DNA of 64,000 nucleotides from Nitrospirota bacterium (GCA_021784575.1 JAJYHX010000001.1:413917-477916), one strand, 5' to 3'; positions 35,875 through 56,624 are shown, numbered from the stretch's first letter. Translations and numbers: made by a program. The notes: generated from the sequence alone by a model not told the origin.

Positions 35875-37551
35875 ATGAAGGGTGGATACTTCGTGAAACC
35901 GTTGTTGTTTGCTTTAGTTTTCGGGGTGTTTATTGCCGGAGCGGTCCCGGCCTTCGCCGGCGGCGTTAAGTTCATGGGCGGATATCCAAGGCGTGAAGGC
36001 AAGTCCGTCCTTATGCAATGGCTTCCCGTTCACGGGGCATCGGCATACAAGGTCTACCGGGCCGAAGGACGCATGAAGGCCAGGGTCATAGGCGAGCCGA
36101 AGGTCAACAGGTTTATAGACAAGAGCCTCCCGGCGGGCAAGACCCTGCATTATTACGTCTCCGCGGTTATCGGCGGGAAAGAGTCCTCGAAGACGACGGT
36201 ATGGAGCACAACCACCGCCTCGAAGGCGCCTAAAAAAGTCTTTATTCCCCTTAAGACGCCAAGGCTCGCCGGCCTTCATCTGAAGCCGGAGCCCGGCAAC
36301 AAATACTCCGTCGGGATGAGGTGGGAAAACGCCGGCGGGACAAACTTTGTCGGTGTAAATATTTACCGCTCCACCGTAAAAGGCAAGGATTTCGCCCTCA
36401 TAGGCTCATCTTCCAGCGACATGTACAACGACAAAAACGTAAAGCCCGGCATGACATACTACTATGTCGCGACGTCCGTGGACAGCCAGTTCCACGAGAC
36501 CAGATATTCAAACGAGCTTTCGGTATCGATTCCATCTCCCGCAGCGCTGGCGGCTGAGCAGAAACAGGCCGAAAAAGAAGACGAGCCGGTAAAAATGAGG
36601 CCGGCGAAGCTCCTCTTCCGGATACCCGACAGCGAGGAATCTAAAAACAAGGATGAAATACCTTACGCGGCCATGTCCGTGGCCGTCGATGAGGCGGTTG
36701 GACACATATACGTCACTTCAGTGGTCTACGGCGGCGTCCTGGTATACAACCTCGACGGCAAATACCAGTTCGGCATCCGCAAGGACGGCGTGGACGGCAA
36801 GGAAAAATTCGGCACCGCGATGGGCGTGGCTGTCGGCAAGGGCGGCGATATTTACGTGTCCGATTACAGCGGCCCGACGGTAAGCATATTCGATTTCACG
36901 GGCAAGCCCGTCGGGACGATAAACATAGACACCACCAAAATGCCGGAATACAGCGACGTCCTGAGGAACCATGCCAGGAACCACAGCATAGCCATTGCAA
37001 AGGATGGAAGGATGTACATATGCGACCCGGCCGTCAATTCGATACACGTCTATAACGCCGCCAACAACAGACACATAACCGATTTCCGTGGCGCAAGGAA
37101 CGCGATGGAAGAAAAGAAATTCCACACGAAGCTTTTGCTGAACGGGCCGGCATATAGCGCAATACTGAATAATGGAGACCTGGCAATAGTGGATTCCGGG
37201 ATCGCCAGGATTGATGTATTGGACAAAGAGGGGCATCTTGTAAACCATATCGGGGAATACGGCGAGGGCGCGGGCGAACTCTACTTCCCGTCCGGCGTGG
37301 CGGTCGACAGGAAAGGCGATGTTTTTGTCGGACTGGCGCAGTCCCCGAACATACAGGTGTTCAGCCCGGAGGGCAAGTTCCTCTATGCGCTTAGCAATGA
37401 ATCTGCAAACGGGCCTTTGCCGATACAGTCCTCCGGCGGCCTGGCCGTAGACAGCCACGACAGGCTTTACGTGGCCGAGACGATGGCCGGCAGGGTCTCG
37501 GTATTCCAGCTTCAGGGGAATACCAGGGACATTAAGACGGGAGTAAAGTAA
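35875..37551 (+). CDS. Secreted NHL-repeat beta-propeller protein with two N-terminal fibronectin-III-like domains (paralog 1)
   Basis: Signal peptide MKGGYFVKPLLFALVFGVFIAGAVPAFA; FN3 signatures (YKVYRAEG...LHYYVSAV; VNIYRSTVKG...MTYYYVATSVD); ~6 NHL blades (GHIYVTSVVYGGVLVYNLDGKYQFG, GDIYVSDYSGPTVSIFDFTGKPVG, GRMYICDPAVNSIHVYN, GDLAIVDSGIARIDVLDKEGHLV, GDVFVGLAQSPNIQVFSPEGKFL, DRLYVAETMAGRVSVFQ). Confidence 0.7.
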   Translation: MKGGYFVKPLLFALVFGVFIAGAVPAFAGGVKFMGGYPRREGKSVLMQWLPVHGASAYKVYRAEGRMKARVIGEPKVNRFIDKSLPAGKTLHYYVSAVIGGKESSKTTVWSTTTASKAPKKVFIPLKTPRLAGLHLKPEPGNKYSVGMRWENAGGTNFVGVNIYRSTVKGKDFALIGSSSSDMYNDKNVKPGMTYYYVATSVDSQFHETRYSNELSVSIPSPAALAAEQKQAEKEDEPVKMRPAKLLFRIPDSEESKNKDEIPYAAMSVAVDEAVGHIYVTSVVYGGVLVYNLDGKYQFGIRKDGVDGKEKFGTAMGVAVGKGGDIYVSDYSGPTVSIFDFTGKPVGTINIDTTKMPEYSDVLRNHARNHSIAIAKDGRMYICDPAVNSIHVYNAANNRHITDFRGARNAMEEKKFHTKLLLNGPAYSAILNNGDLAIVDSGIARIDVLDKEGHLVNHIGEYGEGAGELYFPSGVAVDRKGDVFVGLAQSPNIQVFSPEGKFLYALSNESANGPLPIQSSGGLAVDSHDRLYVAETMAGRVSVFQLQGNTRDIKTGVK

Positions 37552-37681
37552 TCGTTTTCTTTGGAGTATCAAGGTATTGAGAGATTATGGAATCTATAAA
37601 TTTCGACAAGGAAGGGAGGTGAAGATTTTTTAGGGAGAAGTATCGTTAGCGCATTTTTTTCAATCAAACAGGAGAGTAGAG

Positions 37682-40609
37682 ATGAAAAGATTATTAACGG
37701 TTCTAATCGCGGCGGCGGTGGTGCTTACGGCCTACCCGGCGTTCGCGATGATTCTCGGGTCGCCGCACGACTTCACTGGGCAGGCAGGCGCCGGCACCTA
37801 CGTTTACGGCACCTGCGATACATGCCACGTGCCGCACGCCGCGAAAGAGAGAAAACGTTTGTGGAATAACGTCACCGGCATTACAATAGGAGGCACCCCT
37901 TGGGGCAGCACCACGAAGGGCATAGGCCTTCTCTGCGGAAGCTGCCACTATGGAAACGCTTTTACGGTCGCGAACATTGGAGGCAGGCCGGCTGACAATA
38001 TGGCCAATCTTGCCTATGCCGCCACCTCTCACGGCGACAACCTGGGTGTCCTCGAAGGAACCGCCGCGGGCGACCTCAACGACACCGCTGGCGCCGCGCC
38101 CGACGCGACCCTGCCTTACACCCAGACCGCATCGAACACCATCGAATGCACCTCGTGCCACAACCCGCACCAGGACGGCGGCCCGGGCGGCGAAGCCAGT
38201 CCAAGCACCGGCATCAGGCCGTTCCTTCGCGCCGATACCGGCGTCACCGACATTTCCGATTTCTGCGCCGAGTGTCATAAGTCGAGGGTAAACAACCCGG
38301 TCAATTCCCTCAGCACAAACGACTACCAGAACGGCGACCCGACAGGCGCAGCGACGGCTTCAATGTCGGACTTTACCAGGAACCACCCGGTAAATGTTCT
38401 GTATGGCGACGACCCATCTAACGGCATCGGCTGGTTCAAGAACCAGCCTGCCGGCGGCCCGCTCACGACCGTCGTCTACGGCAAAAATGCGACCAACAAC
38501 GCCCTCATCGGCTGGTCCCTGGGCGGCAAGATGCAGAACACCGACGGCAGCATTCCGTCAACCGCATATACTGAAAACGCCGGCAGTACTCCCGATGCAA
38601 ATAACGTATTGGGCGGCACGAGCCAGGGAGCGCAGCAAATAGGCTGCATGACCTGCCACTCCATACACAAGCCTGGCGACAGCAACGGGTATGTAGGGTC
38701 TGACGCGGGTCTGAGCACCGGAACCGGTAGCTATCAGGCTCTCTGGCTTCTTGCGGTGGGCAACAGCGGCCAGGGCGGCGATTACAGGTCTGACCTCTGC
38801 GAGACCTGCCACGGCCAGGCTATTTCGACAAGCGCCACCACCTGGGATACGAGGGCGGGCGGCGTTGCGCCGAGCACCACTGGAGGCTATGACCACCCGA
38901 TAGACGGCCCGATTGCCGGCACATATCTCACCACCTTCATCACCGCATGGTCTATGGAGACAAACGGCAATACCACTTTCGGCCTTAACAGCCTCCGCAC
39001 CAGGGCCGAGCGCGTGCCGGCCGGCACATCTGCCACATGGCCCGCGGGCAACATGGGGTCTGCCACGCCCCAGATTATTTGCACCTCCTGCCACAGCGCC
39101 CATCATGCCGGGTCAAGGCTGAGGAGGATGAATGGTGATGTGAATGACTGGTGCAAGTCCTGCCATCCGTCGGTATCTCCGCTCGGGCATCACTCCAATC
39201 ACGCGAACGACTACCTTTCGGTGCTCGTGTGCTCAAACTGTCATACCGATGTGCCGGCTCTGAGCGGCGGCACGTATACTGTAAATGGGGTCGCTGAGAC
39301 CTCGTCAGGCCTGGCCCATAACGGCTTCGTCTACTATAACCTTGGCGGCGACAATATGGGCTCCACCCCGCTTGCCACCAATACAAATGGTGTGACTGTT
39401 TCCGAACCGTCTACGCAGTTGGCCAATGGATCCGGCTGTTCCTACTGCCATGCTATCGCGAAGGAACAAATAACATATCCGAATACTCAGAGTGCTACTA
39501 ATCCCGGTTATGCGGTGCCGCCGGTAAACAGGCTGGGCGACGTGACTAATTCGTATCAGGTGAACCACTACCTCGGCCAGTTTGACACCAACGCCAAGTC
39601 TGGTGTATCCATAAACGTCAAGACCGGGGCCTGGAACAGCTACCAGATGCTCCCGAACCACAAGGGCGAGCAAAGGGACTACTCCAAGTTCGGCAATTCC
39701 ACCGGCATCGGGAAGCGCGCAGCCGGCTGGTTACTCACCTGCGAGTCCTGCCATTCGATACTCGGCAACATAGGCAGGGAGGCGCCGGGACAAGGAGCGC
39801 CGATACTCGCCGGCATATCGTCCGGATGGGAGAACAACCTGCTCCTGGAGGACTACCAGGACGACAGCTACTACGGCAATGGAGCGGCAAGCGATCCTAC
39901 GTCCACCACAGCGACTGCTGGTGTAAACGCCGGCAACGGGATCACCTGGGCGACCCAGGCGAACGCCCTGAGCGTCGGTTCCGGTCTGTGCATAGCCTGT
40001 CATAATCAGGGCGGCGCACAGTACAACCAGGGCGCGGCCAACGGCACGGTGCCGGACTACGCAATTCAGGATCCTACGGTTGCGCCTCTGAACATGCACC
40101 CGATGACCGGATGGTCGATAACCAGGGCTCAGGACGCGGGCAGGACAACCGGTAACGGTTTCTTCCTGACCACGGACCAGGATGGGACAACCGATGACCT
40201 TTCTTACGCCAACAACCCGCAGCTTACTACCGGAGGCGCTTATGGGACGACTGGCGCTCCGGCGAAGAAGACCGGCGGATCGGTCGGGCTTGGCGCGGGT
40301 GAGGGCGCGGTATCCTATCCCGTAACTCCGGGCTCGTTGCATACGTCGAACGGCGATCCCCTTACATACTCTGGCGCTATGGACTGCGACAGCTGCCACA
40401 GGCCGCACAACGCGCCTTCCGGCGCCTGGTTGCCCGCGTCCGAAATAAAGACGCGCACACTCAGCAGCAGCGCCATCGGGAACGGCGCAGTCGATACCAC
40501 GGTGACAGGGGCTGTGGGTGTGCCGGTTATACTTGAGTACGCTAATACCGCTCAGGGTACCACCGCTGACAATACCGGGACCCTGTGCGAGCAGTGTCAC
40601 AGCTATTAG
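37682..40609 (+). CDS. Secreted multiheme c-type cytochrome, 975 aa, 14 CXXCH motifs arranged as paired (doubled-CXXCH) units, Gly/Thr/Ser/Asn-rich (cytochrome A)
   Basis: Signal peptide MKRLLTVLIAAAVVLTAYPAFA. Haem motifs CDTCH, CGSCH, CTSCH, CAECH, CMTCH, CETCH, CTSCH, CKSCH, CSNCH, CSYCH, CESCH, CIACH, CDSCH, CEQCH. Recurrent CxxCHxPH(xx) context as in TIGR01905 paired-CXXCH domains. N-terminal GSPHDF motif shared with cytochrome B. Confidence 0.75.
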   Translation: MKRLLTVLIAAAVVLTAYPAFAMILGSPHDFTGQAGAGTYVYGTCDTCHVPHAAKERKRLWNNVTGITIGGTPWGSTTKGIGLLCGSCHYGNAFTVANIGGRPADNMANLAYAATSHGDNLGVLEGTAAGDLNDTAGAAPDATLPYTQTASNTIECTSCHNPHQDGGPGGEASPSTGIRPFLRADTGVTDISDFCAECHKSRVNNPVNSLSTNDYQNGDPTGAATASMSDFTRNHPVNVLYGDDPSNGIGWFKNQPAGGPLTTVVYGKNATNNALIGWSLGGKMQNTDGSIPSTAYTENAGSTPDANNVLGGTSQGAQQIGCMTCHSIHKPGDSNGYVGSDAGLSTGTGSYQALWLLAVGNSGQGGDYRSDLCETCHGQAISTSATTWDTRAGGVAPSTTGGYDHPIDGPIAGTYLTTFITAWSMETNGNTTFGLNSLRTRAERVPAGTSATWPAGNMGSATPQIICTSCHSAHHAGSRLRRMNGDVNDWCKSCHPSVSPLGHHSNHANDYLSVLVCSNCHTDVPALSGGTYTVNGVAETSSGLAHNGFVYYNLGGDNMGSTPLATNTNGVTVSEPSTQLANGSGCSYCHAIAKEQITYPNTQSATNPGYAVPPVNRLGDVTNSYQVNHYLGQFDTNAKSGVSINVKTGAWNSYQMLPNHKGEQRDYSKFGNSTGIGKRAAGWLLTCESCHSILGNIGREAPGQGAPILAGISSGWENNLLLEDYQDDSYYGNGAASDPTSTTATAGVNAGNGITWATQANALSVGSGLCIACHNQGGAQYNQGAANGTVPDYAIQDPTVAPLNMHPMTGWSITRAQDAGRTTGNGFFLTTDQDGTTDDLSYANNPQLTTGGAYGTTGAPAKKTGGSVGLGAGEGAVSYPVTPGSLHTSNGDPLTYSGAMDCDSCHRPHNAPSGAWLPASEIKTRTLSSSAIGNGAVDTTVTGAVGVPVILEYANTAQGTTADNTGTLCEQCHSY

Positions 40610-40817: not shown

Positions 40818-42398
40818 ATGCGTCTCCCTGACAGAAAAAAATGGCTGACGGCGCTCCTGGCCGGATTGGTGATTTTGTCCGCTTTGAGCCAGGGCTGCGT
40901 CAGAACCCGACATTTCGGCAAGGGAGTGCTGGCGACCATCGATAATCAACCGCTTACCGTGGAAGAGTATAAAATCGTTGTCGGGAGGATACCGACGGAT
41001 TTCAAGAAAAGAAAGCGCAGGCTTCAGCAGATGATAAGCACGAGGCTCCTTGCGGAAGAGGCGCTTGCGAAAGGCTATCTCGGGACGTCCGCGGTTTACT
41101 GGGGCATGCAGAGGTTTTATTACTTCAGGCTGCCCGAACTGTTAAAGTGGGATGTCTACAATAAAATCAAGGTGGACAAGAACAAGCTGGACGCCATAAG
41201 AAAGGCAATGAATCTCCAGACGGTGGTGCATGTCAAGATGCTTGTCGCGCCGACGATAGGGAGGGCGCAGGCGGCGCTTAGCGACCTCGAAAAAGGCGAG
41301 AAATTTGAAGACGTGGCGGCAAAGTATACGGTCGTGAAGTCGGATGTCAGGCACGAGATAAGCCTCGACGATTCTCTTTATCCCATCGGGGTCAGGGCGA
41401 TATTAAACCGCACGAAACCCGGCCAGCTCACGCCGCCGATGAAGCTTGACATCGGCTACGCCGTGATGCAGGTGCAGTCGAAAGACGACCCGGCCGCCGT
41501 ATGGAAGTCCGTGGAAGACAGAATGGCGGGGAACCTGAAACAACAGGAAATGAAAAAAGAGATGGCGGATATACTTGCCCGGCTTCGTTCCACCGCCAAG
41601 ATAAAGATATATTCACAGAAGAACAAGCAAGGACAGACAATATATACCGGCGCGGAGGTCAACGGCATAAATATAAACATGAACCCGCGCCTCTTCAAGC
41701 GGCAGAACAACCCTCATTTCGCGCACACGATGATGAACGCCCAGACACTGATGGCAGCGCTCAACGAAAGAATCAACGACATACTTTACACCGAGGAGGC
41801 GAAGGCGCGCGGCCTCCAGTACAACCCAAGGTTCAGGGAAGACGTGCGGCTGAAGAGGGAGGAGGTGCTTGCGGATTGTTACCTTGAGGCGATGGTAGGA
41901 AACAATACCGCAACTCCGCAGGATATAGAGAACTATTACGAAAAATATAAAAAGAGACACGAACAGAACCGGCTTGCGCGCATAAGCCACATACTGCTTC
42001 CGAGCGAGAGCCAGGCGGAGACGGTTCTCTCAGAATTGAAAAAAGGAAAGGATTTCGCCCGGCTTGCAAAAGAAATGTCGCTCGACCTGCCGACAAAAAA
42101 CGCCGGCGGCGTTGTCGGTTTTATCGATCCGAAAACCCTGAAGGAACCGATGAAGAGCGTTATCATGGGAATGAAGCCCGGAGAGATAAGCGGGATTGTA
42201 AAAGGCCCGGCTGGGTACGAAATAGTGAAGGTGACCGAGTGGAAAAACGAGATCGTGCCGCCGCTTTCCGAGATAAAGGACGAGATGACAAACAGGGTAC
42301 TCTTGAACAAGCGCTCGGACAAAGTGACGGCGCTTTATAAGGTGGTTTACGCAAAGCACAAGGTCGAAATAAACGAGCAGCTTCTAAAGTCGCTGTAA
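40818..42398 (+). CDS. Periplasmic parvulin-type peptidyl-prolyl cis-trans isomerase (SurA/PrsA/PpiD-like chaperone), probable lipoprotein
   Basis: 526 aa; signal plus Cys (LVILSALSQGC); SurA-N-like region; PpiC rotamase domain (ARISHILLPSESQAETVLSELKKGKDFARLAKEMS...GGVVGFI). Confidence 0.65.
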   Translation: MRLPDRKKWLTALLAGLVILSALSQGCVRTRHFGKGVLATIDNQPLTVEEYKIVVGRIPTDFKKRKRRLQQMISTRLLAEEALAKGYLGTSAVYWGMQRFYYFRLPELLKWDVYNKIKVDKNKLDAIRKAMNLQTVVHVKMLVAPTIGRAQAALSDLEKGEKFEDVAAKYTVVKSDVRHEISLDDSLYPIGVRAILNRTKPGQLTPPMKLDIGYAVMQVQSKDDPAAVWKSVEDRMAGNLKQQEMKKEMADILARLRSTAKIKIYSQKNKQGQTIYTGAEVNGININMNPRLFKRQNNPHFAHTMMNAQTLMAALNERINDILYTEEAKARGLQYNPRFREDVRLKREEVLADCYLEAMVGNNTATPQDIENYYEKYKKRHEQNRLARISHILLPSESQAETVLSELKKGKDFARLAKEMSLDLPTKNAGGVVGFIDPKTLKEPMKSVIMGMKPGEISGIVKGPAGYEIVKVTEWKNEIVPPLSEIKDEMTNRVLLNKRSDKVTALYKVVYAKHKVEINEQLLKSL

Positions 42399-42423: not shown

Positions 42424-44052
42424 ATGGGTAGTAAGATGTTCACGAGAAACAAGCTGGTTGCCTTGGCGGCGGCTTCGCTTCTCTTTATTCTAAGTGTTGT
42501 TGCCGCATTTCCCGCGCAGGACTCCGTCAAGCCTCCGATATGGGTTGGCATCTACATCGCCGCAGAGAAGGTGGGGCTTAAGTGGACGCCGGTCAAGGGC
42601 GCTGTACGGTATAAGATATACCGTTCCATTTCCAGCGGCGGCCAGTACAACCTCATCGCGTCAACTACGGACGACTCTTACATCGACCCCACGGTCCTCA
42701 TAGGGGAGACCTACTACTACGTCCTCAAGTCCGTCGGAGCCGGCAGCAAGGAATCGGGTTATTCCGAAGAGCGTTATATAAAGGTGCCGGTCGTCAAGGA
42801 GACCGTGCCCGTCCAGCCGCCGGAATGGGTTGGCGCGCTGGTGGGAAGAAGAAGGATAAGGCTCGCCTGGAATCCCTCCGCCTCGAAGGACGTCCTCGCA
42901 TATAACGTCTACAGGAGCGCCGACCCAACGAAGGGTTTTCAGCTCATCGGCTCCACTCAGGACACCAGCCTCACCGACACGGACATAAAAGAAGGCGAGA
43001 CATACTACTATGCCGTCTCCGCCCTGGATAGAAATTTCAGGGAGACAAAGCTCGGAAAGGTGCAGACCGTCCGGTATGCGCCTTCGGAGGGGAAACCGGG
43101 CGTCGGGGCCGTCCGGCCAGGCGCGTCCGAGATGCCGCCGCGGATTATACCGACAAGGCTGACTATCAGGCGCACCCGGCGGGTGGGATATATCCTGAGG
43201 TGGAAGAACCGCAGGCCGCTTTTTTCTCCGACGGATGTCGTCCTTGGCAAGGACGGGAAGATATACGTATCTGATACCGGCGACAGCATGATACAGGTCT
43301 TCAAGCCGGGAGGCGCCTTCATACGGTCCATCGGCAAGTTCGGGACAAAGCCTGGGCAGTTCGAGAAGCTCCTCGGCGTGGATGTCAACGACAAGGACGA
43401 AGTCCTCGCCGTTGACGCTTATACCGGCACGATACAGAAGTTCGACAAGAAGGGCCGTCTCATAATGTTCAAGAAGATGCTTGATGACAGCAAGGCCATC
43501 GCGCTTGACCTTGGACGCAAGAAGCCGGTGGAGGTCTTCGGCATAATAAAGGGCCTCTTCGCCCCGGACGGGAACCTGTACATAATCGACAACTTCAACG
43601 ACTGCGTCGAAATTTATTCGCCGACCGGCAAATATATAAAGACGTTCGGAGGCAAGGGAAGGCAGGACGGGAAGTTCCTGTCTCCCACCTTTGCCATATT
43701 CGGGAAAGACGGGCATCTCTACGTGTCCGATTGCATGAACGCGCGCGTCCAGGTGTTCGACAAGGACGGACACTTTCTGTGGAAGTTCGGCGGGTACGGA
43801 AATATCGCCGGGACATTCGGCAGGCCGAAGGGCATCTGCATCGACAAGGCCGGCAATATATACGTCTCGGATTCCATGTCCAACGCGATACAGGTGTTCG
43901 ACAGGCACGGCAGGTTCAAGTACGCCCTGGCGAACAGAATGGGCAAACAGATTGATATGGCCACTCCGAACGGTATAGCCATCGACAAAGACAAGCGCAT
44001 CTATATCGTCGAGAAGCTGGTGAACCGTATCCAGATCAGACAGGTCGAGTAG
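42424..44052 (+). CDS. Secreted NHL-repeat beta-propeller protein with two N-terminal FN3-like domains (paralog 2)
   Basis: Signal peptide; FN3 signatures (RYKIYRSISSGGQYNLIA...ETYYYVLKSV; YNVYRSADPTKGFQ...ETYYYAVSALD); NHL blades (GKIYVSDTGDSMIQVFKPGGAF, GNLYIIDNFNDCVEIYSPTGKYI, GHLYVSDCMNARVQVFDKDGHFL, GNIYVSDSMSNAIQVFDRHGRF, KRIYIVEKLVNRIQI). Confidence 0.7.
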   Translation: MGSKMFTRNKLVALAAASLLFILSVVAAFPAQDSVKPPIWVGIYIAAEKVGLKWTPVKGAVRYKIYRSISSGGQYNLIASTTDDSYIDPTVLIGETYYYVLKSVGAGSKESGYSEERYIKVPVVKETVPVQPPEWVGALVGRRRIRLAWNPSASKDVLAYNVYRSADPTKGFQLIGSTQDTSLTDTDIKEGETYYYAVSALDRNFRETKLGKVQTVRYAPSEGKPGVGAVRPGASEMPPRIIPTRLTIRRTRRVGYILRWKNRRPLFSPTDVVLGKDGKIYVSDTGDSMIQVFKPGGAFIRSIGKFGTKPGQFEKLLGVDVNDKDEVLAVDAYTGTIQKFDKKGRLIMFKKMLDDSKAIALDLGRKKPVEVFGIIKGLFAPDGNLYIIDNFNDCVEIYSPTGKYIKTFGGKGRQDGKFLSPTFAIFGKDGHLYVSDCMNARVQVFDKDGHFLWKFGGYGNIAGTFGRPKGICIDKAGNIYVSDSMSNAIQVFDRHGRFKYALANRMGKQIDMATPNGIAIDKDKRIYIVEKLVNRIQIRQVE

Positions 44053-46189: not shown

Positions 46190-48481
46190 ATGCTGCGGAC
46201 GGCGAAACATATCATGCTTGTTCTGACGGTCGCGGCGGCGCTGCTCCCGGCTGTTGCGTACGCGGCAATAGGCGGCACGGAATCGAAACACAACATGACA
46301 CTGTTAGGCGGCTACCCCTACGGCCAGAACGTATGCGACGCATGTCATTCGTCACATTTCGACTCGGGCGTTAGGCTTTGGGCGGCGGGCAGGCAGACGG
46401 AACTCGCTAACGCAAAGAATCAGTCTCAGGACGAACTGGCCGGCGGGAATTATCCGGGCATATACCTCTGCCTCGACTGCCATAGCACGGCAGCGTCGGT
46501 TCCATCGGCGCCTGCCTCCTGGGCAAAGCCCGCCGCCGAGAACGTCGTCACGCACTCGACGCTCGAAATGAAATTCGCCGGGTATTCCACGAAATACGAG
46601 TCTTTTACGATGCAGTGCACCACCTGCCATAATACGCATCAGTACTGGAACGGCACGTTCCAGCCGGGCCAAAACGGATACATGATACGCTCCACCATCA
46701 TCACCCCGAACAGCGGCGTTAAGAAGGTGGTCTTCTACGCGATATCCGGCCCGAACTCCATGGGGAACGACTATACGCCCCATACGTCCATATGCGAGGT
46801 CTGCCATACCAGGACCACTTACCACAACAACGCGTCATCCAATAACCCGCATTACGACGGGCAGAAATGCACTCTCTGCCACAACCACCAGAACGGTTTC
46901 AGCGCGAGGTGGACATGCACCTCCTGCCACGGGAACCCGCCGACGAGCCAGCCGCTGCTTGTGGGCCGCTCCCTGAAGAACGGTTATCCGCCCACAGGCG
47001 AGACCTCGGCGGGTATGCACGCCTTCCACTTCTACTCCACGAAGGTTTATTCCACAAACGGGTCCTTCAGCGTCGGTTATTCCTGCGACTACTGCCACAA
47101 GGGCGGCATGAACGATACCGGGCTTACCGACAAGATTATAGAAGTGAAGTTCTCGGATTTTAGCCGCTACACATCCGGCAGTTTCGACGGCTTTGCTCCG
47201 ATAAGCGGCTATACCTTCAGCCCCGGCAATACCACCGGCGGGACGCAGGCCTGCTCCAACACCTATTGCCACGGCAACTTCTACGGCGGGAACAAGACCA
47301 ACAAGCCCGTATGGACAAACGCCGCGAGCGGGGCATGCGGCACCTGCCACGCCACCGCCCCACCGGCCCTTCTCGACCACAGCGTGCACCTAACGGCCTC
47401 GTGGGGACCGAAGGCGTCCTGCGACGACTGCCACGGCGCCAACGCCTCCATTGGCAGCAACACCGGGCACGTGGGCGGGTTCGTCATATTTGCAGACTTG
47501 AAGAACTTCTCCACCACGACCGTTTGCAACGGGTGCCACGGAAGCGGCGCGGCGATGGCAAAGGCATACTGGGGGCACACCAGCATCAGGTCGCAGGACT
47601 CCTGGTGCGAGTCCTGCCACAACGGCAACAGCCCGGCGTCCGTCGTGAATACCGCCGCCGGGACAGGCGGAGTCAATGTTACCGCGCAGAATGTCGTCGG
47701 CGACAAAACGACCTACGGTTACGACTATACCGGCCACGGCGCGCCCCCGGGCGCGATCCAGTGCACCGCATGTCACGACATAAAGTCTCAGCACGTGGGC
47801 CCAGCCTCGTTCTCGTACAAGGCGTCGTCCAATAACTACAGGTCCGCCTTCAGGATGGGTTCGGTGTCCAATACCGTCCCGCTGCTCGGCAGCTATACGT
47901 CTTCGGCGGCGGCGCTGTGCTATTCCTGCCACAGCCAGACGAAGATACTGGGTATGCCCGCCGAGGGAAAACCGTCATCCATGCACGTCCACAACCCCAT
48001 ATACATTTCCTCCTGGGCCACGGATTTCCGCAATACCTCGACGATACTCGGACTTTACAGCGGCGGCGACTGGGACGCCACCGGCAGCAGCGCCGACGAG
48101 CCCACCAACATCCACTGGAACCACCTTGACGACTACGGGAGCACCAAACGCTACCCGTCGGCCTACATATACGACTCCGACGGCGACGGAGCCGGAGACT
48201 CCCGCATCGTCTGCGATACATGTCACGACCCGCACGGCACGCAGCAGCCCGCGATGGTATACGATGCGTTCGACCTGAGGACTTATTCCGCCCCGCCCAA
48301 TCCCGGCTACAGATGGGTAAACGGAAGCGGATATGCGACGAACAGGTGCATTTCCCCCGGCAACTCATGTCATACGGCGGGAGATTTTCCTGGAACCGCG
48401 GGCATGAGGTGGTATCGGCAGACCCTGTCGAATACCACAACCGGCGCCCCGGTGGGACTTACGGCGACTCAGCTGCAATAG
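46190..48481 (+). CDS. Secreted multiheme c-type cytochrome, ~764 aa, ~15 CXXCH (one CX4CH) motifs (cytochrome C)
   Basis: ATG at 46190 with RBS gaggg; signal peptide MLRTAKHIMLVLTVAAALLPAVAYA; CDACH, CLDCH, CTTCH, CEVCH, CTLCH, CTSCH, CDYCH, CSNTYCH, CGTCH, CDDCH, CNGCH, CESCH, CTACH, CYSCH, CDTCH. The track ORF start at 46154 overlaps cytochrome B. Confidence 0.75.
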   Translation: MLRTAKHIMLVLTVAAALLPAVAYAAIGGTESKHNMTLLGGYPYGQNVCDACHSSHFDSGVRLWAAGRQTELANAKNQSQDELAGGNYPGIYLCLDCHSTAASVPSAPASWAKPAAENVVTHSTLEMKFAGYSTKYESFTMQCTTCHNTHQYWNGTFQPGQNGYMIRSTIITPNSGVKKVVFYAISGPNSMGNDYTPHTSICEVCHTRTTYHNNASSNNPHYDGQKCTLCHNHQNGFSARWTCTSCHGNPPTSQPLLVGRSLKNGYPPTGETSAGMHAFHFYSTKVYSTNGSFSVGYSCDYCHKGGMNDTGLTDKIIEVKFSDFSRYTSGSFDGFAPISGYTFSPGNTTGGTQACSNTYCHGNFYGGNKTNKPVWTNAASGACGTCHATAPPALLDHSVHLTASWGPKASCDDCHGANASIGSNTGHVGGFVIFADLKNFSTTTVCNGCHGSGAAMAKAYWGHTSIRSQDSWCESCHNGNSPASVVNTAAGTGGVNVTAQNVVGDKTTYGYDYTGHGAPPGAIQCTACHDIKSQHVGPASFSYKASSNNYRSAFRMGSVSNTVPLLGSYTSSAAALCYSCHSQTKILGMPAEGKPSSMHVHNPIYISSWATDFRNTSTILGLYSGGDWDATGSSADEPTNIHWNHLDDYGSTKRYPSAYIYDSDGDGAGDSRIVCDTCHDPHGTQQPAMVYDAFDLRTYSAPPNPGYRWVNGSGYATNRCISPGNSCHTAGDFPGTAGMRWYRQTLSNTTTGAPVGLTATQLQ

Positions 48482-48492: not shown

Positions 48493-50928
48493 ATGAAGAT
48501 GAAAATGACGAAGACAAAAACGGTTCTACTTTTTGCGGTGTTCGCGCTTGTTGGCGTTGCCGCAGGGCTGCCCGCCGAGGCTGCGCCGGCGACCGCGCGT
48601 ATCGTGCCTGCGCGGATGCGTCCGCAGATGGCGGCGCGCGTGTTTGCGCCGGAAACGTCCGTGCATATGCAGAGGTTCGCGCCCGGGCATATGTCCATGC
48701 CCATGCGTATGCCGGCGCAGATTCGTCCATGGCAGAGGCCCGCGCCCGGGCAGGCATCCACGCCCATGCGTATGCCGGCGCAGATTCGTCCGATGCAGAG
48801 GCCCGTGCCCGCGCAGACCAGTCCGGTGCGGAGGTCCGCGTCCGGGCAGACCAGTCCGCAGGCGCCTGCGCAGAAGCCCGTCTCCGGCCAAACGTCCGCC
48901 GCCGGTCAAACCGCCCCGGCCGGTAAAAGCGGCGGGCCTGGCATAAAGCTTCAATGGAAGGCCCCCGCCGGCATTGCCGTGTCGAAGATAGCGGGGTACT
49001 ACATCCTGCGCGCCGACAAAGAGCTTGGGCCGTATAAAAGAATAAACGAAAGCCCTGTCAAGACGCTTTCGTACGACGATAAGGGCCTGAAAGACAAGGC
49101 GGGGTATTTCTACGAGGTTTGCACGGTTTTGCAAAACGGCACGATGAGCCGCCCCACGAAGCCTGTCGGGATAATTGTCGGAAGCAAGCAGACGTACGCG
49201 CCGCCGCGGATAGAATCCTTTGGCGCGGATTCCGCCGGGAAAGTCAGATATGCCGGAGAGACCGCGTTTTTCAACATGAGCGGGACTCCGGGAGACAACG
49301 CGGTTTTTTCCATCGAAGGTCAGACAGGCGGGATAACGACGCCCGGCACGCAGATAACGATGAAGGAGATAACGCCCGGCGTTTACAGGGGCGCATACAC
49401 CGTGGCGCGCGGCGTCCGGATAATAAACGGTTATGCGGCGGCTACATTGTCGGATGACAAGGGAGGGCAGGCTGCCGCAAAGACCGGCGCCAACCTCGAT
49501 TTTATCGGGATGGCCAAACCGGCAATCTCCGGACTTTACGCAAGCCGGATTACAAGCGACAGCGTGTGCGTCGGCTGGCCCCGCGTCGACACCGGCGAAG
49601 GATATTACAACCTGTATCGGGACACCTCGCGCATAGTGGACGCCAGCAAACTTACCCCGCTGTCTGCGAACATGAACACCAGCGTATCCACATTCATAGA
49701 CGATTCCGTAAAGGCGGGGACAAGCTACTACTATGTCCTGGTTTACGACGATCTTTCGGGCGCGCCGCTCGCCATAAGCGATAACCTGGAAGTCAATGTC
49801 CCGTGGATGCATGTTTCATTCGGAGCAAACTCCGTGCATGAAGACTCCGGAGGGAAAACCCTGAAGCCCGGAGACGTCCTCGGCGTAACCGTGAACACGG
49901 CGGCCGGCGGCAAGGCGGCATTCAGTATAAGCAATACGGCCAGCAACCTTGCGCTGACGGAAGGCCCGGCCGGGGTCTACAAGGGCGCGTGGACGATAAA
50001 GGAGGGCGACGGGATATTCAAGAGCAGGGTGGCCGTGAATTTTACGGCCCCTGACGGCAGACAGCATTCCGCGCTGTCCGCAACGCTTGTCTCCGTGGAC
50101 GCCCCGAAGGCAAATCAAGTGAAGCCCGCCGTTCTTGCGGCCTCCGTGAAAACCATTGGGGGCAGGAATCCGGTACTGGTCAATAGCAGAAATCCAGCCG
50201 GGATTAATAAGAAGCTGCCCGGAGCCGGGAAGCCGGTTATCGCCGGGATTAAAGGCAACGTCAGGGTAATTCCGGGGCCGCCGGGCAGGCCGGCAGCCGG
50301 AAAGAAACTTACCGTATTGCCCGGGAAGGCGGGAAGAACGTCAATCATCACAACCGGAGGGCTTGCCTCAAGACCCGGCGGTGTCATCGGCGCGGCGCAG
50401 GCGGCGAAGAGCGCATCAATCATCACGGGCGGGAGGCCTGACTCAATACCGCGTGGGCTGCCGTATGAATTTCAGAAGCCGGAACCCCGGCCATCTCCTG
50501 CTCCGGGAATGCATTCTCCGGCTTCGGGAATACAAAGGGCCGGCGGCTCGTTTCCGGGCAGGCCGGCGGAAAGCGCCGGAACCCCGGCGAACGCTGTGAA
50601 CCCGATTGGCGTTGTAAACCCGGCAGGCACTGTGGCCCCGATTGGCGTTGTGAACCCGCTTGGCGCTGTAAACCCGGCAGGCACTGTGGCCACGATTGGC
50701 GTTGTGAACCCGCTTGGCACGGTGAACGCGGCGGGCGCGGGGAATGCTGCCGCGGGGCCTGTCTCAAGCCTTCCGGCGCCGTCGCATGGGAAGAAAAAAC
50801 CGGGAACTCCGCAGTCTCCGGCTTCGGGAACACAGTCTCCGGTTCCGGGAATGCAGTCTCCGGTTCCGGGAATGCAAAAGGCCGGCGGCTCGGTTCCGGG
50901 CCACGGCGTTTCGGCCTTTGGAGACTGA
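48493..50928 (+). CDS. Large repetitive secreted/surface protein (~811 aa) with FN3-like and Ig-like domains, N-terminal Met/Pro/Arg-rich repeats and C-terminal NPxGxV repeats
   Basis: Signal peptide MKMKMTKTKTVLLFAVFALVGVAAGLPAEA. Repeats MPMRMPAQIRP(W/M)QRP x2; FN3-like (GYYILRADKELGPY...; GYYNLYRD...SYYYVLVYDD); two Ig-like modules; C-terminal tandem (NPIGVVNPAGTVAPIGVVNPLGAVNPAGTVATIGVVNPLGTVN) mirrored by ~60-nt DNA tandem repeats at ~50590..50720 and ~48700..48830. Confidence 0.55.
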   Translation: MKMKMTKTKTVLLFAVFALVGVAAGLPAEAAPATARIVPARMRPQMAARVFAPETSVHMQRFAPGHMSMPMRMPAQIRPWQRPAPGQASTPMRMPAQIRPMQRPVPAQTSPVRRSASGQTSPQAPAQKPVSGQTSAAGQTAPAGKSGGPGIKLQWKAPAGIAVSKIAGYYILRADKELGPYKRINESPVKTLSYDDKGLKDKAGYFYEVCTVLQNGTMSRPTKPVGIIVGSKQTYAPPRIESFGADSAGKVRYAGETAFFNMSGTPGDNAVFSIEGQTGGITTPGTQITMKEITPGVYRGAYTVARGVRIINGYAAATLSDDKGGQAAAKTGANLDFIGMAKPAISGLYASRITSDSVCVGWPRVDTGEGYYNLYRDTSRIVDASKLTPLSANMNTSVSTFIDDSVKAGTSYYYVLVYDDLSGAPLAISDNLEVNVPWMHVSFGANSVHEDSGGKTLKPGDVLGVTVNTAAGGKAAFSISNTASNLALTEGPAGVYKGAWTIKEGDGIFKSRVAVNFTAPDGRQHSALSATLVSVDAPKANQVKPAVLAASVKTIGGRNPVLVNSRNPAGINKKLPGAGKPVIAGIKGNVRVIPGPPGRPAAGKKLTVLPGKAGRTSIITTGGLASRPGGVIGAAQAAKSASIITGGRPDSIPRGLPYEFQKPEPRPSPAPGMHSPASGIQRAGGSFPGRPAESAGTPANAVNPIGVVNPAGTVAPIGVVNPLGAVNPAGTVATIGVVNPLGTVNAAGAGNAAAGPVSSLPAPSHGKKKPGTPQSPASGTQSPVPGMQSPVPGMQKAGGSVPGHGVSAFGD

Positions 50929-52813: not shown

Positions 52814-52917
52814 AGAGTGAATTCAATCTTTAAAAATTTTTAATTTTCAAAGATTGATGTTGCAAATCAATTATAGCTATGATAAAAAGTCAAACTGGGG
52901 GAGGGGGAGCGTTTATT

Positions 52918-53697
52918 ATGCGAATTAGTATCAGGTTTCTTCTTTTTGCATGTCTGGCGGTTTTATTTCTTGCTGGTTGCGGAAGCGGGACGACCCGTCT
53001 TTTTACCAAGCCTATCGCCGAATCCACTTACGTGACATATCCGGAATGGGGCCCCGACTGCGACGTCGCGGTTATGCCTTTCGTGAACGTGTCCAAGGAC
53101 AAGGATGCGGGCCTTAAGGCGCGCGATCTCTTCGTTACCGAGCTCTATATCTCCGGCGCCTTCAAGGATGTCGTGGACGAGGGCCAGATGGTCGAGGTAA
53201 TGAAGAAGCTTAAGCTTAGGGAGACCGACAACATCGGCAAGGACACGCTGAAGACCCTTGGGGACAGCTTGGGCGTTCAGGCCGTCATATTCGGCACGGT
53301 CGAGGTGTACAACGAACGGTCCACCCAGGGCGCGCAATTCGCGGTATCGTTGCGCATGGTGGATGTCGATACCGGCCAGATACTCTGGCTCGGGGACGCG
53401 TCCAAGGAGGGCGGCGGGACGGTTTCCGAGGCCCTGGGGCTTTCCAGCGGCCCGCCCGTAATCGACGTTGCGCGCGACGTCATGAGCGGCCTCGTGGACG
53501 ACCTTGCGAGTGAAATAAGGGACAGGAAGGTAACGGGTAAAAAGGCCCTTGCGCTTTTAAAGAGAGAGAAGATGGGAAATGTATTGAAGGCCAAGGTGAA
53601 TAGCGCGCTCGTCCCGAACCAGCAGGCCGGAGCTGTGCCGCCGCCCGCCGTTAAAAGCAACTCCGCGGGCATAACGCCTGCGCCGGTCGTTCCTTAA
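52918..53697 (+). CDS. Lipoprotein of the LpoB/CsgG/TolB-N-like fold family (PF-type VAVMPFxNxS motif)
   Basis: Lipobox LFLAGCGS with ATG at 52918 and RBS gggggaggggga. VAVMPFVNVSKDKDAGLKARDLFVTELYISGAFKDVVDEGQ...AVIFGTVEVY matches the conserved LpoB/CsgG-like core. Pro/Ala-rich C-terminal tail. Confidence 0.45.
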   Translation: MRISIRFLLFACLAVLFLAGCGSGTTRLFTKPIAESTYVTYPEWGPDCDVAVMPFVNVSKDKDAGLKARDLFVTELYISGAFKDVVDEGQMVEVMKKLKLRETDNIGKDTLKTLGDSLGVQAVIFGTVEVYNERSTQGAQFAVSLRMVDVDTGQILWLGDASKEGGGTVSEALGLSSGPPVIDVARDVMSGLVDDLASEIRDRKVTGKKALALLKREKMGNVLKAKVNSALVPNQQAGAVPPPAVKSNSAGITPAPVVP

Positions 53698-53749
53698 GAT
53701 GGGGTGGCGGGAAAATACCGTGATTCCCGGATGACGATGTTTCATTGTT

Positions 53750-53896: not shown

Positions 53897-55381
53897 ATGA
53901 AGAATATAAAAACTGTTGCGGTATATGCGGCCTTCGCCCTTGCAGTCTGGGGCTGCGGCCACAGCACGGTGGTCGTGGGGCGCCGGGCCGAGATTAAAGG
54001 CATAAAACCCCAGGAGCAGTCCCAGCCTTCGGTATCGGCGAAGTCCGCCAAGGCCGCCGGCCGGAAACAACAGTCCGTCCTCGCGGGCGCAAAAGGCGGC
54101 GCGATGGGCATGGGCGGGCCGTCCGGCGCGAAAGCATCGACTGCCAAGGTTGCCGCCAATATGCTGCCGCAGTCTTCGCCGGCAAGGCCGCGGCCCGCGC
54201 CTCCGAAAGAGGAAGCAAAGTCAAAATCCGGCCCCGCGCCATACAAGCTCGACCTCTCCTTCGGCGGTTTCGGGCTTGGGATAGGGCTTTTCGATACGCC
54301 CGTGGCCGTTGCGGTGGACGACCAGGAAAATATGTATGTCGTTGACCAGGGTAACTACCGCATACAGAAGTTTGACCGTTTCGGCCTCTTCCAGTTCGCA
54401 TTCGGCAGGCAGGGCATGGGAGAGGGGGAGTTTGCGCAATCCATGACGACCCCCACGGCCCTGCGCGAGACCGGCGAGTTCGAGTTCAACAAGCCCGTCG
54501 GGATATACCTCGACCAGGACCGCACCAGGAACCTGACCAGGATACAGGTTGTGGACTCTCTGAACAACCGCATACAGCGTTTCCTCGTCGCGTCCAACGT
54601 ATCGGACTTCATGAATGTGTACAACCCCTTCGACGCAAGTCCGCCGAACGTTTTTATCATGCTCACAAAAACCGGGAATGCGGTCGATACGGCCCTGCAC
54701 GACAAGTTCCTTGCGGAGAACAGGCTCGTCATACTCGACCCGCTATACCTCCAGGACATTGCGGGAAAGGCCAACGCATTCCTGCTTACTCCGTTTATAT
54801 GGGGTGGGCTGGGCTTCACGCAGGGCCAGCTTAACCAGCCGACATATCTTACAATGGACGAAAACAACGTCCTTTGGGTTTCCGACACCGGGAACGGACG
54901 CGTGGAAGGCTTCAATGTAAGCGAGTCCAACCCCGCGGTCGATGCGACATATTTCCGCGAGTTCGGAAACGACACGAACCTCTCTTACGGCAAGGGCAGG
55001 CTCAATCAGCCGACCGCCATCGCCTACGATAACGAGGGACTCGGCGGGTTCCTTGTCCTCGACAAGCTCCCGGACGGCACTTACGCAATCGAGAAATTCG
55101 ACAGAGACGGCCGTTTCAAGGGGATATTTACCAAATCCGGCGACAAGGAAGGACAGTTGAAAGAGCCGGTTGACATCGCCCTGAGCCCTTTCGACAATAC
55201 CTGTTTCGTTACGGACAGGGGCAGGCGGAAGGTTATGGTCTACAACAACAAGGGCGTGTTCATGTACGAGTTCGGCGGCAACGAGCTGGCGGATCCGAGG
55301 GGCATAACGGTCTTAAGGAACGGCTATGTCTATGTTACGGACGCCGCCAAGAACATGGTCTACCGGTATGTCCCGCAATAA
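53897..55381 (+). CDS. Secreted/lipo NHL-repeat beta-propeller protein (paralog 3; lacks FN3 domains, has Ala/Lys/Gly-rich linker)
   Basis: MKNIKTVAVYAAFALAVWGCGHS signal; NHL blades (ENMYVVDQGNYRIQKFDRFGLFQFAFG, TRIQVVDSLNNRIQRF, NNVLWVSDTGNGRVEGFN, FLVLDKLPDGTYAIEKFDRDGRF, NTCFVTDRGRRKVMVYNNKGVFM, GYVYVTDAAKNMVYRY). Confidence 0.65.
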   Translation: MKNIKTVAVYAAFALAVWGCGHSTVVVGRRAEIKGIKPQEQSQPSVSAKSAKAAGRKQQSVLAGAKGGAMGMGGPSGAKASTAKVAANMLPQSSPARPRPAPPKEEAKSKSGPAPYKLDLSFGGFGLGIGLFDTPVAVAVDDQENMYVVDQGNYRIQKFDRFGLFQFAFGRQGMGEGEFAQSMTTPTALRETGEFEFNKPVGIYLDQDRTRNLTRIQVVDSLNNRIQRFLVASNVSDFMNVYNPFDASPPNVFIMLTKTGNAVDTALHDKFLAENRLVILDPLYLQDIAGKANAFLLTPFIWGGLGFTQGQLNQPTYLTMDENNVLWVSDTGNGRVEGFNVSESNPAVDATYFREFGNDTNLSYGKGRLNQPTAIAYDNEGLGGFLVLDKLPDGTYAIEKFDRDGRFKGIFTKSGDKEGQLKEPVDIALSPFDNTCFVTDRGRRKVMVYNNKGVFMYEFGGNELADPRGITVLRNGYVYVTDAAKNMVYRYVPQ

Positions 55382-56624
55382 GCCTGTAATTGTCCTCTTT
55401 GCGCTGTTTTTGTTTGTCTTAGCAATCCCTCTCGCAAGGTCAGCGGCTGCCGGAACGAAGGCGCGGAATGGTGTCACATCCGGGGCCGGCTCTCCGCGGG
55501 ACCGCTCCCACGCAGGGTCAAAGACCGACAAAGTGAAGACGCAGGGCAAAGGCGTGCTCGTGCTCGTGCCCGAGAACCTTTCCGCCGTCTACTCCGAAAC
55601 CGAGCTCTCCGGGGCCCGGCGGCGCGAGGTCTCTGTCCAATCCACCACAGAAGGAGAGATTTCGGTGGTGGGAATAGCGGACGGCAAGCCGGAGATAGAG
55701 ATAGTAAATAACGGCAGGTCCAAGGTAACGCCGGTATTTTACGGCAAGTATTTCCACGCGCAGATTATCCTGTCGCTCGGCGAGAACATGATAAGCGTGC
55801 GCTGGAGAAGGAAGGGCGGGGACTGGAATGTCCAGACCATTTCGCTTTTCCGCTCCTCCAGGATGCTCGGCGCGCCGGTTGTAAACTACCCGCCTTATTC
55901 CTTTCACACTCCCAAGAACGAAGAGCAGTGCCAGGAGTGCCACCAGATGCAGCTTACGCGTAAGGAAATAGAAACGGCAAGGGACTTGAGCTGCCTTAAG
56001 TGCCATGCCGACCTGACGAGCAATATTTACGTCCACGGCCCGGTAAACGTGGGCATATGCACGGTATGCCACGACCCGAACAGCAAGCCGAACAAATACA
56101 AGGTGGAGGAAGGCGACAAGACACTGTGCTACTCCTGCCACACGGACAGGGAGAAGATAGACGACAAGATGAAGCGCGAGCACGGCCCCGTAGGCGCGGG
56201 GCTTTGCACTGTATGCCACGACCCTCACGGCTCGCCATTCAGGTATCAGCTTGTTAAATCCAAAAACGAGATATGCCTGATGTGCCATCAGAGCGATGCG
56301 AACCACTGGCTAAACCAAAGCAGCCTTCATCCGCCGTTTAAAAAGGGAGAATGCTACAGGTGCCACGACCCTCATTCCGCGAACTATAAATACAACCTCA
56401 AGGCCGACAGGAAGCATATCTGCTTGATTTGTCATACCCTTCCCATACCCGGCCATCTTCACGACCCGGGCAAGGTGCCGCTTTTCAAGCTGCCGCCGGA
56501 TTTTCCCCTTACAAAACATGGGAAAACGATGTGTCTGACCTGCCACTCCCCACATGGCGCCATAGGCCCGCACCTGACCCGCCGGAGGGGTTGCAAGGGC
56601 TGCCATCCGGACAAGGACTCGTAG
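55368..56624 (+). CDS. Periplasmic decahaem c-type cytochrome (~418 aa, 10 CXXCH; MtrA/OmaB-like size class) (cytochrome D)
   Basis: ATG at 55368 overlapping NHL3 end; signal/TM MSRNKPVIVLFALFLFVLAIPLARSAAAG; CQECH, CLKCH, CTVCH, CYSCH, CTVCH, CLMCH, CYRCH, CLICH, CLTCH, CKGCH. Confidence 0.7.
   Translation: MSRNKPVIVLFALFLFVLAIPLARSAAAGTKARNGVTSGAGSPRDRSHAGSKTDKVKTQGKGVLVLVPENLSAVYSETELSGARRREVSVQSTTEGEISVVGIADGKPEIEIVNNGRSKVTPVFYGKYFHAQIILSLGENMISVRWRRKGGDWNVQTISLFRSSRMLGAPVVNYPPYSFHTPKNEEQCQECHQMQLTRKEIETARDLSCLKCHADLTSNIYVHGPVNVGICTVCHDPNSKPNKYKVEEGDKTLCYSCHTDREKIDDKMKREHGPVGAGLCTVCHDPHGSPFRYQLVKSKNEICLMCHQSDANHWLNQSSLHPPFKKGECYRCHDPHSANYKYNLKADRKHICLICHTLPIPGHLHDPGKVPLFKLPPDFPLTKHGKTMCLTCHSPHGAIGPHLTRRRGCKGCHPDKDS

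Follow-up and report, generated by a model that had tools for sequence, protein, structure and literature searches.

NHL beta-propeller genes paired with multihaem cytochrome genes in an OmcE-like cluster of an uncultured Nitrospirota bacterium

Introduction

Electromicrobiology has yet to settle how cells export and anchor extracellular cytochromes and cytochrome nanowires and avoid their mis-assembly, matters for which the literature uses the words 'unanswered' and 'speculative'. Among the proteins encoded beside such cytochromes are beta-propellers of the NHL-repeat family. In D. ferrophilus IS5, NHL beta-propellers are found among MtrA-like and extracellular multihaem cytochromes (MHCs) in the gene groups DFE_0448-0451 and DFE_0461-0465; two of these propellers are co-expressed at levels comparable to the outer-membrane cytochromes and were proposed to stabilise the complex, and homologs were noted in many sediment bacteria (Deng et al., 2018; PMC5815863). 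Here we analyse a 64,000-nucleotide stretch of DNA from an uncultured Nitrospirota bacterium (GCA_021784575.1 JAJYHX010000001.1:413917-477916; hereafter the window), in which a cluster of 13 genes at 32.6-56.6 kb, all on the + strand, contains three NHL propeller genes (NHL1, NHL2 and NHL3), each lying directly 5' of an MHC gene (cytA, cytB and cytD, respectively). The region is best explained as a lineage-specific extracellular-electron-transfer cluster of the porin-cytochrome or OmcE type. The initial annotation of this DNA, which was made from the sequence alone, did not recognise the propeller-cytochrome arrangement as a described module; the association has in fact been in the literature since 2018, and the window is a further example of it.

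The locus can be likened to several described systems by gene content. It shares with D. ferrophilus the presence of NHL propellers among MtrA-like and further MHCs, but the D. ferrophilus cluster belongs to another phylum, is smaller, and has no peptidyl-prolyl isomerase (PPIase) or barrel described in it. A second such system is the undecahaem electron transfer (Uet) cluster, UetA-J, reported in 2022 from Ca. Tenderia electrophaga and Gallionella. It encodes a PPIase (UetB), a beta-barrel (UetC), NHL propellers (UetH/I), the undecahaem cytochrome UetJ and a small extracellular tetrahaem cytochrome, and in the published order UetI, the second NHL gene, directly precedes UetJ. A PPIase, a beta-barrel (predicted in our case), at least two NHL proteins and an MHC are collected into one block in both cases. 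The triheme c7 proteins (UetDEG) and the cupredoxin (UetF) of that system were not found within 32.6-56.6 kb of the window, whose cytochromes carry 14, 14, 15 and 10 haems.

The closest resemblance is to the omcE nanowire clusters of Desulfuromonadia and other phyla, which always contain two beta-propeller lipoproteins and a large beta-barrel together with OmcE and two MHCs, and are often followed by family 2/4/39 glycosyltransferases (bioRxiv 10.1101/2025.10.22.684050). A G. ferrihydriticus locus similarly encodes two NHL proteins beside cytochromes that resemble MtoA and OmcE. Our cluster has in common with the omcE type the OmcE-homologous heads of cytA and cytB, propellers, an MtrA-like MHC, a predicted large barrel and a PMT-like glycosyltransferase. 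It differs in that the OmcE-like module heads 14-haem proteins, with no free tetrahaem OmcE subunit; in that NHL1 and NHL2 have FN3 stalks in place of lipid anchors; and in having three propellers, as well as an LpoB-like lipoprotein and a Big_1/FN3 protein.

The osc (OmcS-companion) system of G. sulfurreducens shares the general logic of our cluster: alongside OmcS it reportedly has a prolyl-isomerase chaperone, outer-membrane components resembling channels, and OscD, an accessory protein resembling a beta-propeller that is reported to affect nanowire morphology. By contrast with that system, no OmcS homolog was found here: none of the four cytochromes matched the OmcS chains in the PDB at E <= 1. 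Porin-cytochrome complexes of the MtrCAB type offer a further comparison. The decahaem cytD resembles MtrA (6R2Q chain A; E 7e-10) and DmsE, the putative large barrel (BB) has MtrB as its second-best fold match, and other MHCs, proposed to be extracellular, are co-encoded. However, cytD scores below the cut-off of the DmsE family (TIGR03508; E 2e-31, 109 bits against 192) and has an extra N-terminal domain, no member of the MtrC/OmcA family is present in the cluster, and Mtr operons are without NHL propellers and PPIase. The absence of a free tetrahaem, of UetDEG and UetF and of OmcS and MtrC homologs, together with the FN3 stalks on two propellers, means that the cluster is not a strict member of any of these systems.

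What is new here is that the specificity of the pair, an NHL propeller and behind it a cytochrome whose N-terminus is of OmcE type, is quantified over ~12 phyla, and that a Nitrospirota version of this arrangement is described in which the OmcE-headed cytochromes have 14 haems. For the window taken alone the advance is incremental, the association being already in the literature and the mechanism of the propellers being something that we infer.

Results and discussion

Two of the three pairs are copies of one two-gene unit

NHL1 through cytD occupies 35875-56624 of the window (Table 1). The junctions within the pairs are a gap of 130 nt (NHL1 to cytA), a gap of 2 nt between the NHL2 stop and the cytB start (initially annotated as 3 nt) and an overlap of 14 nt (NHL3 and cytD), which is identical in one orthologous locus (L086). 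The remaining open reading frame (ORF) coordinates, the haem counts and the overlap agreed with those first reported, and there are no further multihaem genes in the 64-kb window beyond cytA-cytD. Two features had gone unremarked: the OmcE-like start of cytA and cytB, and the embedding of the pairs in a larger cluster of porin-cytochrome type.

The assignment of the propellers to the NHL family survives a profile search, all three scoring above the 20-bit cut-off of Pfam PF01436 (E values in Table 1), and a hidden Markov model (HMM) of the blade finds six blades in each, as had been proposed. The strict blade consensus, GxxYVxDxxNxRIQxF, is nevertheless present in only two blades of NHL2, the rest being degenerate. 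Against PDB sequences, NHL2 matches crystal structures of the TRIM71 and Thin NHL domains (E 1e-45). An AlphaFold2 (AF2) model of NHL3 has a propeller of high confidence (predicted local distance difference test, pLDDT, >90) preceded by a region, residues 19-110, with pLDDT <50; in Foldseek searches the model superposes on the six-bladed NHL domains of TRIM71, Thin and TRIM2 (TMt 0.76-0.84). A seventh blade in the irregular segment 231-312 of NHL3 was considered and rejected, since the blade HMM gives six repeats and the fold matches are six-bladed. The tandem FN3 domains proposed for two of the proteins are real but weak: residues 49-122 of NHL2 match the 'Fn3-like' PDB entry 3mpc (E 3e-7) and residues 140-204 match Pfam fn3 below its cut-off (E 1.6e-3), while NHL1 can be aligned with NHL2 across this region.

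Signal peptides are found in all of the NHL proteins and in all four cytochromes. In NHL3 a cysteine, Cys20, follows the h-region of the signal and is invariant in 27 orthologs, within a non-canonical lipobox (VWGC); the invariant cysteine and the ~90-residue disordered linker behind it suggest that NHL3 is a tethered lipoprotein. No lipobox was found in NHL1 or NHL2; many homologs of the NHL proteins have one.

The three propellers had been described as paralogs belonging to a threefold duplication of one propeller-cytochrome unit. Paralogy extends over the full length between NHL1 and NHL2 (25% identity over 518 aa, E 3e-43 by blastp) and is confined to the propeller between NHL2 and NHL3 (23% identity, E 2e-11). 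Among the cytochromes, cytA and cytB are related (27% identity over 536 aa, E 3e-29), whereas blastp detected no paralogy of cytC or cytD with either. The matched relationships of NHL1 with NHL2 and of cytA with cytB indicate that two of the three pairs are one duplicated two-gene unit. NHL3-cytD is a different pair, a divergent propeller followed by an unrelated MtrA/DmsE-like decahaem, and the duplication is therefore twofold. No close relatives of NHL3 were detected outside its own clade, leaving unsupported the idea that it belongs to a propeller subgroup that precedes MtrA-like pentahaems elsewhere.

The cytochromes of the duplicated unit begin with a module homologous to OmcE. Residues 1-165 of cytB match the OmcE filament structure of G. 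sulfurreducens (7TFS; E 5e-9) in three collinear segments that include all four OmcE haem sites (CXXCH) in order, and the same region also matches the putative multihaem cytochrome chain of 9YUQ (D. soudanensis OmcE). The GSPHD(F/I) motif, noted initially and present as GSPHDF in cytA and GSPHDI in cytB, aligns with the 'NTKHDLS' start of OmcE. On its own cytA gave no significant match to PDB sequences; its likeness to OmcE thus rests on the cytB N-terminus, to which its N-terminal 215 aa are homologous, and on the related MHCs in 48 loci to which this segment is also homologous. At 975 aa (cytA) and 708 aa (cytB), with 14 haems each, neither is a small OmcE-like tetrahaem (~200-250 aa), and no free-standing tetrahaem gene is present in the window. 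With 32 and 38 histidines, they have enough for all 14 haems to be bis-His ligated, which does not discriminate as to filament formation. Serine, threonine, glycine and asparagine make up 41% of cytA, which is also the fastest-evolving gene of the cluster, so that cytA is probably surface-exposed. The third cytochrome, cytC, has an OmcE-type N-terminal motif (ESKHNMT) and matches to the GSu_C4xC_C2xCH and c7-type triheme domains.

The pairing is conserved and partner-specific across phyla

The association was quantified in other genomes by a locus scan that used one genome per species and a reduced propeller alignment, a 15-sequence alignment being too diverse. At least 562 loci with an NHL2-like propeller were found. 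Statistics were taken from the best 80 of them, of which 78 are non-orthologous to the cluster described here, and which come from ~12 phyla: the sample includes Nitrospirota, Thermodesulfobacteriota, Planctomycetota, Verrucomicrobiota, Kiritimatiellota, Ignavibacteriota, Aquificota, Campylobacterota, Gammaproteobacteria, Acidobacteriota, Zixibacteria, Binatia and others. A downstream MHC was defined as a same-strand ORF with >=3 haem motifs starting -100 to +400 nt from the NHL stop.

An MHC lies directly downstream of the propeller gene in 53 of the 77 loci with room downstream. The two genes overlap at 17 of these 53 junctions, 13 times by exactly 4 nt. As an in-locus control over the 78 non-orthologous loci, an MHC follows 72 of 114 NHL genes (63%) and 45 of 457 other genes (9.8%; odds ratio 15.7, p 6e-31). 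The partner is also of a particular kind. Homology to the N-terminal module of cytA/cytB was detected in 50 of 56 downstream MHCs, and the OmcE-type N-terminal motif, (S/T)(K/P)H(D/N)(L/F/I) placed ~15 residues before the first CXXCH, is carried by 79% of MHCs that follow an NHL gene (65/82) against 15% of other MHCs (25/162; odds ratio 21, p 9e-23). Finally, when a propeller is compared with its nearest relative from a different genome, the two share a partner class in 61 of 79 cases, compared with 21 on label shuffling, a figure to which shared ancestry contributes. The pairing noted initially in a single cluster therefore holds across genomes, and a functional partnership of propeller and cytochrome can be argued from adjacency conserved far above background, often with overlapping stop and start codons, and is further supported by the partner-specific motif. 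Gene content, homology, conservation and the specificity of the pairing are all observed directly in these loci.

Several loci in other phyla contain two or three NHL-MHC pairs in one cluster. A recurrent layout, which is the setting of the closest relatives of NHL2 in other phyla, consists of a 4-haem cytochrome, a propeller, an MtrA-like 5-haem cytochrome, a ~680-aa haem-free ORF, a second propeller and a 12-haem cytochrome with an OmcE-type head. Homologs of the PPIase were found in 11 other NHL loci. No homologs of BB, the LpoB-like lipoprotein (Lpo), the glycosyltransferase or the FN3/Ig-like protein (FN3L) were detectable by phmmer in the 78 non-orthologous loci, and for want of BB homologs any equivalence of barrels across phyla is only positional.

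Two side observations concern other loci. A distant relative (32% identity to NHL2) in locus L004, at 8064-19608, is accompanied by two further NHL-MHC pairs (514 aa followed by a 374-aa MHC, and 354 aa followed by a 221-aa MHC and then by a >745-aa ORF with no Pfam match). Interspersed among these pairs are three genes for redoxins, one for a GGDEF protein and those of a sigma-54 two-component system. Ten loci (L007, L012, L031, L032, L036, L047, L076, L081, L082 and L084), several of them archaeal (Methanolinea, Methanomicrobiales, Nitrosopumilaceae), encode long (>600 aa) or multi-propeller NHL proteins that fit the scan pattern as well; with no neighbouring MHC, these represent a separate, unrelated use of the fold.

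A proposed role for the propellers

We hold with moderate confidence that each NHL propeller is dedicated to the cytochrome encoded directly downstream, which it captures by binding and then docks at, or delivers to, the barrel. A binding role is suggested by the TRIM-type class of the NHL domains, which bind macromolecules, by the lack of a catalytic residue set, by paired co-translation and by the retention of a partner class within each propeller subfamily. In this scheme the propeller and cytochrome would be made together from their tight or overlapping gene junctions. The propeller would be periplasmic or located at the outer membrane, with a lipid tether (NHL3) or an FN3 stalk (NHL1 and NHL2) keeping it in place. 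There it would capture the haem-loaded cytochrome and position it at, or hand it to, the large beta-barrel. Folding, assembly and modification would be aided by four helpers: the PPIase, the redoxin, the LpoB-like lipoprotein and the GT-C glycosyltransferase. NHL1 and NHL2 would serve the OmcE-type 14-haem cytochromes cytA and cytB, which like cytC are long, OmcE-headed and probably outward-facing, and NHL3 would serve the MtrA-like cytD, which may thread the barrel BB. Localisation, physical binding, the direction of electron flow and the status of the propeller as permanent subunit or transient assembly factor are the parts of this scheme that we infer. The strong conservation and specificity of the propeller and OmcE-type pair make the propeller a leading candidate for the sought-after factor that assembles or docks extracellular cytochromes, and the presence of such a system suggests that these uncultured Nitrospirota exchange electrons with solids.

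Several observations weigh against this proposal. Conserved adjacency and subfamily concordance can arise in part from the shared ancestry of syntenic clusters rather than from physical interaction, and for about one third of the NHL homologs sampled, the gene directly downstream does not encode an MHC. Within the window, cytC has the OmcE-type motif but no propeller of its own, and the compartment of NHL1 and NHL2 is uncertain because they lack a lipobox. BB is modelled with only moderate confidence (pLDDT 61), and it matches known barrels with low TM-scores. Lastly, no solved NHL-cytochrome complex was present among the PDB sequence and Foldseek matches.

A more general form of the proposal, which we put forward only tentatively, is that a propeller and an OmcE-type N-terminus make up a universal two-gene recognition module spanning at least 12 phyla, in which the propeller binds this N-terminal segment and so gates, in the manner of a chaperone or usher, whether and where an extracellular cytochrome self-associates or docks at the outer-membrane barrel; the Nitrospirota cluster would then be an instance in which this module has been duplicated and fused to 14-haem wires. 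Closely related, and to our minds possible though rather unlikely, is a role for the propellers as transient periplasmic assembly or quality-control factors, analogous to chaperone-usher systems, that hold the OmcE-type N-terminus, prevent premature self-association or shape the polymer, and release their cargo at the barrel. The common N-terminal motif of the partner MHCs, which a propeller could recognise, would suit such a factor, as would the homology of the cytB N-terminus to the filament-forming OmcE and the co-encoded PPIase chaperone; a porin-like assembly or secretion of OmcS, aided by accessory proteins, has been proposed in the literature, as summarised in the omcE study (Shen et al., 2025, cited in bioRxiv 10.1101/2025.10.22.684050). 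Yet tethering by a lipid or stalk and translation coupled 1:1 are at least equally compatible with a stoichiometric subunit, nothing indicates that the 14-haem cytA and cytB polymerise, and cytD, the partner of NHL3, is without the motif.

Alternatively, the propellers might be surface modules for adhesion or substrate binding that bring the neighbouring cytochrome to an extracellular donor or acceptor such as a mineral, an electrode or a partner cell. The FN3-FN3-propeller architecture is common in surface proteins, a role in adhesion has been speculated for the NHL protein Gmet_0556 (as related in the Uet paper), and binding of mineral nanocrystals by NHL proteins has been speculated in the G. 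ferrihydriticus paper. We consider this improbable: the majority of the family are short lipoproteins that carry no export signal other than Sec/Lol, the propellers are more conserved (NHL2 57%, NHL3 55-62%) than the exposed parts (cytA 30%, BB 35%), and the propeller subfamily tracks the class of cytochrome and not the habitat. Less credible again is an enzymatic role for the NHL domains, in the manner of the NHL-fold lyase PAL, virginiamycin B lyase or the SGL lactonases, in which they would modify the cytochrome, its glycan or a small-molecule shuttle. Weak Pfam/NCBIfam similarities to SGL, arylesterase, Vgb_lyase and ScyF do exist, PAL and Vgb lyase appear among the lower Foldseek matches, and the cluster encodes a GT-C glycosyltransferase. 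The best matches in both sequence and fold, however, are protein- or RNA-binding TRIM-type NHL domains, and the columns invariant in the propeller alignment hold Asp, Gly and Pro residues that are structural to the repeat, with no conserved metal-binding or catalytic-looking set of His, Cys or Glu. Coincidental adjacency of two abundant gene types, some of which is to be expected in MHC-rich clusters and which has a probability of 0.018 within the window by itself (for all three NHL genes lying upstream of an MHC in a random order of the 12 genes NHL1-cytD, counted as three NHL, four MHC and five other), is refuted by the far stronger cross-genome pairing rates, the in-locus control, the motif specificity and the retention of order, strand and overlap across ~12 phyla.

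Conservation and remaining genes of the cluster

The complete gene order, from the redoxin to the decahaem, recurs in related Nitrospirota metagenome-assembled genomes (loci L001, L002, L085 and L086), with the NHL3-cytD pair kept in L085 and L086. Identities to orthologs range from 30 to 68% across the cluster genes (Table 1), and haem counts are maintained (cytA 14, cytB 14, cytC 15-16 and cytD 10). The paralogous 14-haem cytochromes cytA and cytB evolve at very different rates, with the 14 haem motifs kept in both. The fast-evolving genes fit surface exposure.

Table 1. Features of the cluster in window coordinates, with amino acid identity to orthologs.
Feature	Position	Strand	Evidence	Identity to orthologs
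Redoxin (AhpC/TSA)-TPR protein	32607..33614	+	Signal peptide; Pfam AhpC-TSA E 4.5e-19, Redoxin, TPR, TPR_CcmH_CycH	
TMEM260/PMT_2-like GT-C membrane glycosyltransferase	33629..35425	+	Pfam PF11028 E 5e-33, PMT_2	
NHL1: signal peptide, two FN3-like domains, six-bladed NHL propeller	35875..37551	+	Pfam NHL E 7e-12	48-50% (L001/L002)
cytA: 14 CXXCH, OmcE-type N-terminal module (GSPHDF)	37682..40609	+	Homology to cytB N-terminus	30-32%; length 746 to 975 aa; all 14 haem motifs kept
PpiC/parvulin-type peptidyl-prolyl isomerase, SurA/PrsA/PpiD-like	40818..42398	+	Pfam Rotamase E 2e-25; NCBIfam PPIase models	
NHL2: N-terminal signal or anchor, two FN3-like domains, six-bladed NHL propeller	42424..44052	+	Pfam NHL E 8e-27	56-60%
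cytB: 14 CXXCH, GTG start, OmcE-type N-terminal tetrahaem module (GSPHDI)	44055..46181	+	OmcE match	65-67%, constant length; most conserved cytochrome of the cluster
cytC: 15 haems (14 CXXCH + 1 CX4CH), ESKHNMT N-terminal motif	46190..48481	+	Motif scan; domain matches	51-55%
FN3L: Pro/Ala/Gly-rich repetitive FN3/Ig-like protein	48493..50928	+	Weak Pfam fn3 match; ortholog domains	39-40%
BB: putative large outer-membrane beta-barrel (porin or secretion channel), 611 aa	50978..52813	+	AF2 model, Foldseek	35%
Lpo: LpoB/CsgG/GNA1162-like lipoprotein	52879..53697	+	Pfam CsgG E 5e-7, LpoB E 6e-6, GNA1162-like	63-68%
NHL3: probable lipoprotein, ~90-residue disordered tether, six-bladed NHL propeller with insertion	53897..55381	+	Pfam NHL E 5e-16	55-62%
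cytD: MtrA/DmsE-like decahaem, N-terminal extension of ~170 residues	55368..56624	+	10 CXXCH	
Terminator-like GC hairpin and T-run	56654..56671	+	30 nt past cytD stop	

BB has no family match in Pfam or NCBIfam and only nine detectable homologs, one of which is named 'porin family protein'. AF2 predicts an all-beta fold for it, in which ~28-30 long antiparallel strands, compared with 26 in an MtrB-type porin, come after a signal helix, and the top Foldseek matches are LptD, MtrB (6r2q_B, second; E 3e-6, TM 0.26), SlpA and SprA. The neighbouring Lpo has a canonical lipobox (LAGC), and the PPIase has an N-terminal anchor or a lipobox-like LSQGC. FN3L is probably a surface or periplasm-spanning scaffold; its orthologs are longer (961-995 aa against 811 aa here) and carry Pfam Big_1 and Invasin_D3 domains. 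The longest ORF begins at 48220 and so shares sequence with the 3' end of cytC, and the real start of FN3L is therefore probably the ATG at 48493, which lies behind an AGGAG. Short tandem peptide repeats (PMRMPAQIRP..., NPxGxV... and SPVPGMQ...) are found within the protein.

The Redoxin-TPR protein is probably a thiol-disulfide oxidoreductase for apocytochrome handling, and the GT-C glycosyltransferase possibly glycosylates exported proteins of the cluster. These two are the first genes of the cluster in all of the orthologous loci, a conservation hinting that thiol reduction of apocytochromes and O-glycosylation of proteins are dedicated functions of the cluster. Between them and NHL1 lies a 449-nt AT-rich non-coding spacer (35426-35874), which may be the regulatory region of the cluster. 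In L001 this position is occupied by the gene for a 147-aa lipoprotein, for which tblastn found nothing in the window.

At the other end, the hairpin behind cytD probably marks the end of the transcription unit, which we take as a hint only, the number of terminator-like sites in a promoter and terminator scan being not above shuffled expectation. Just past the hairpin, at 57176-58114 (+), is the gene for an IS1595-family transposase (DDE_Tnp_IS1595, E 1e-39, with a zinc ribbon). The orthologous loci have a convergent AP_endonuc_2/peptidase M17/gatB block there instead, and a local insertion or rearrangement seems to have taken place at this edge of the cluster.

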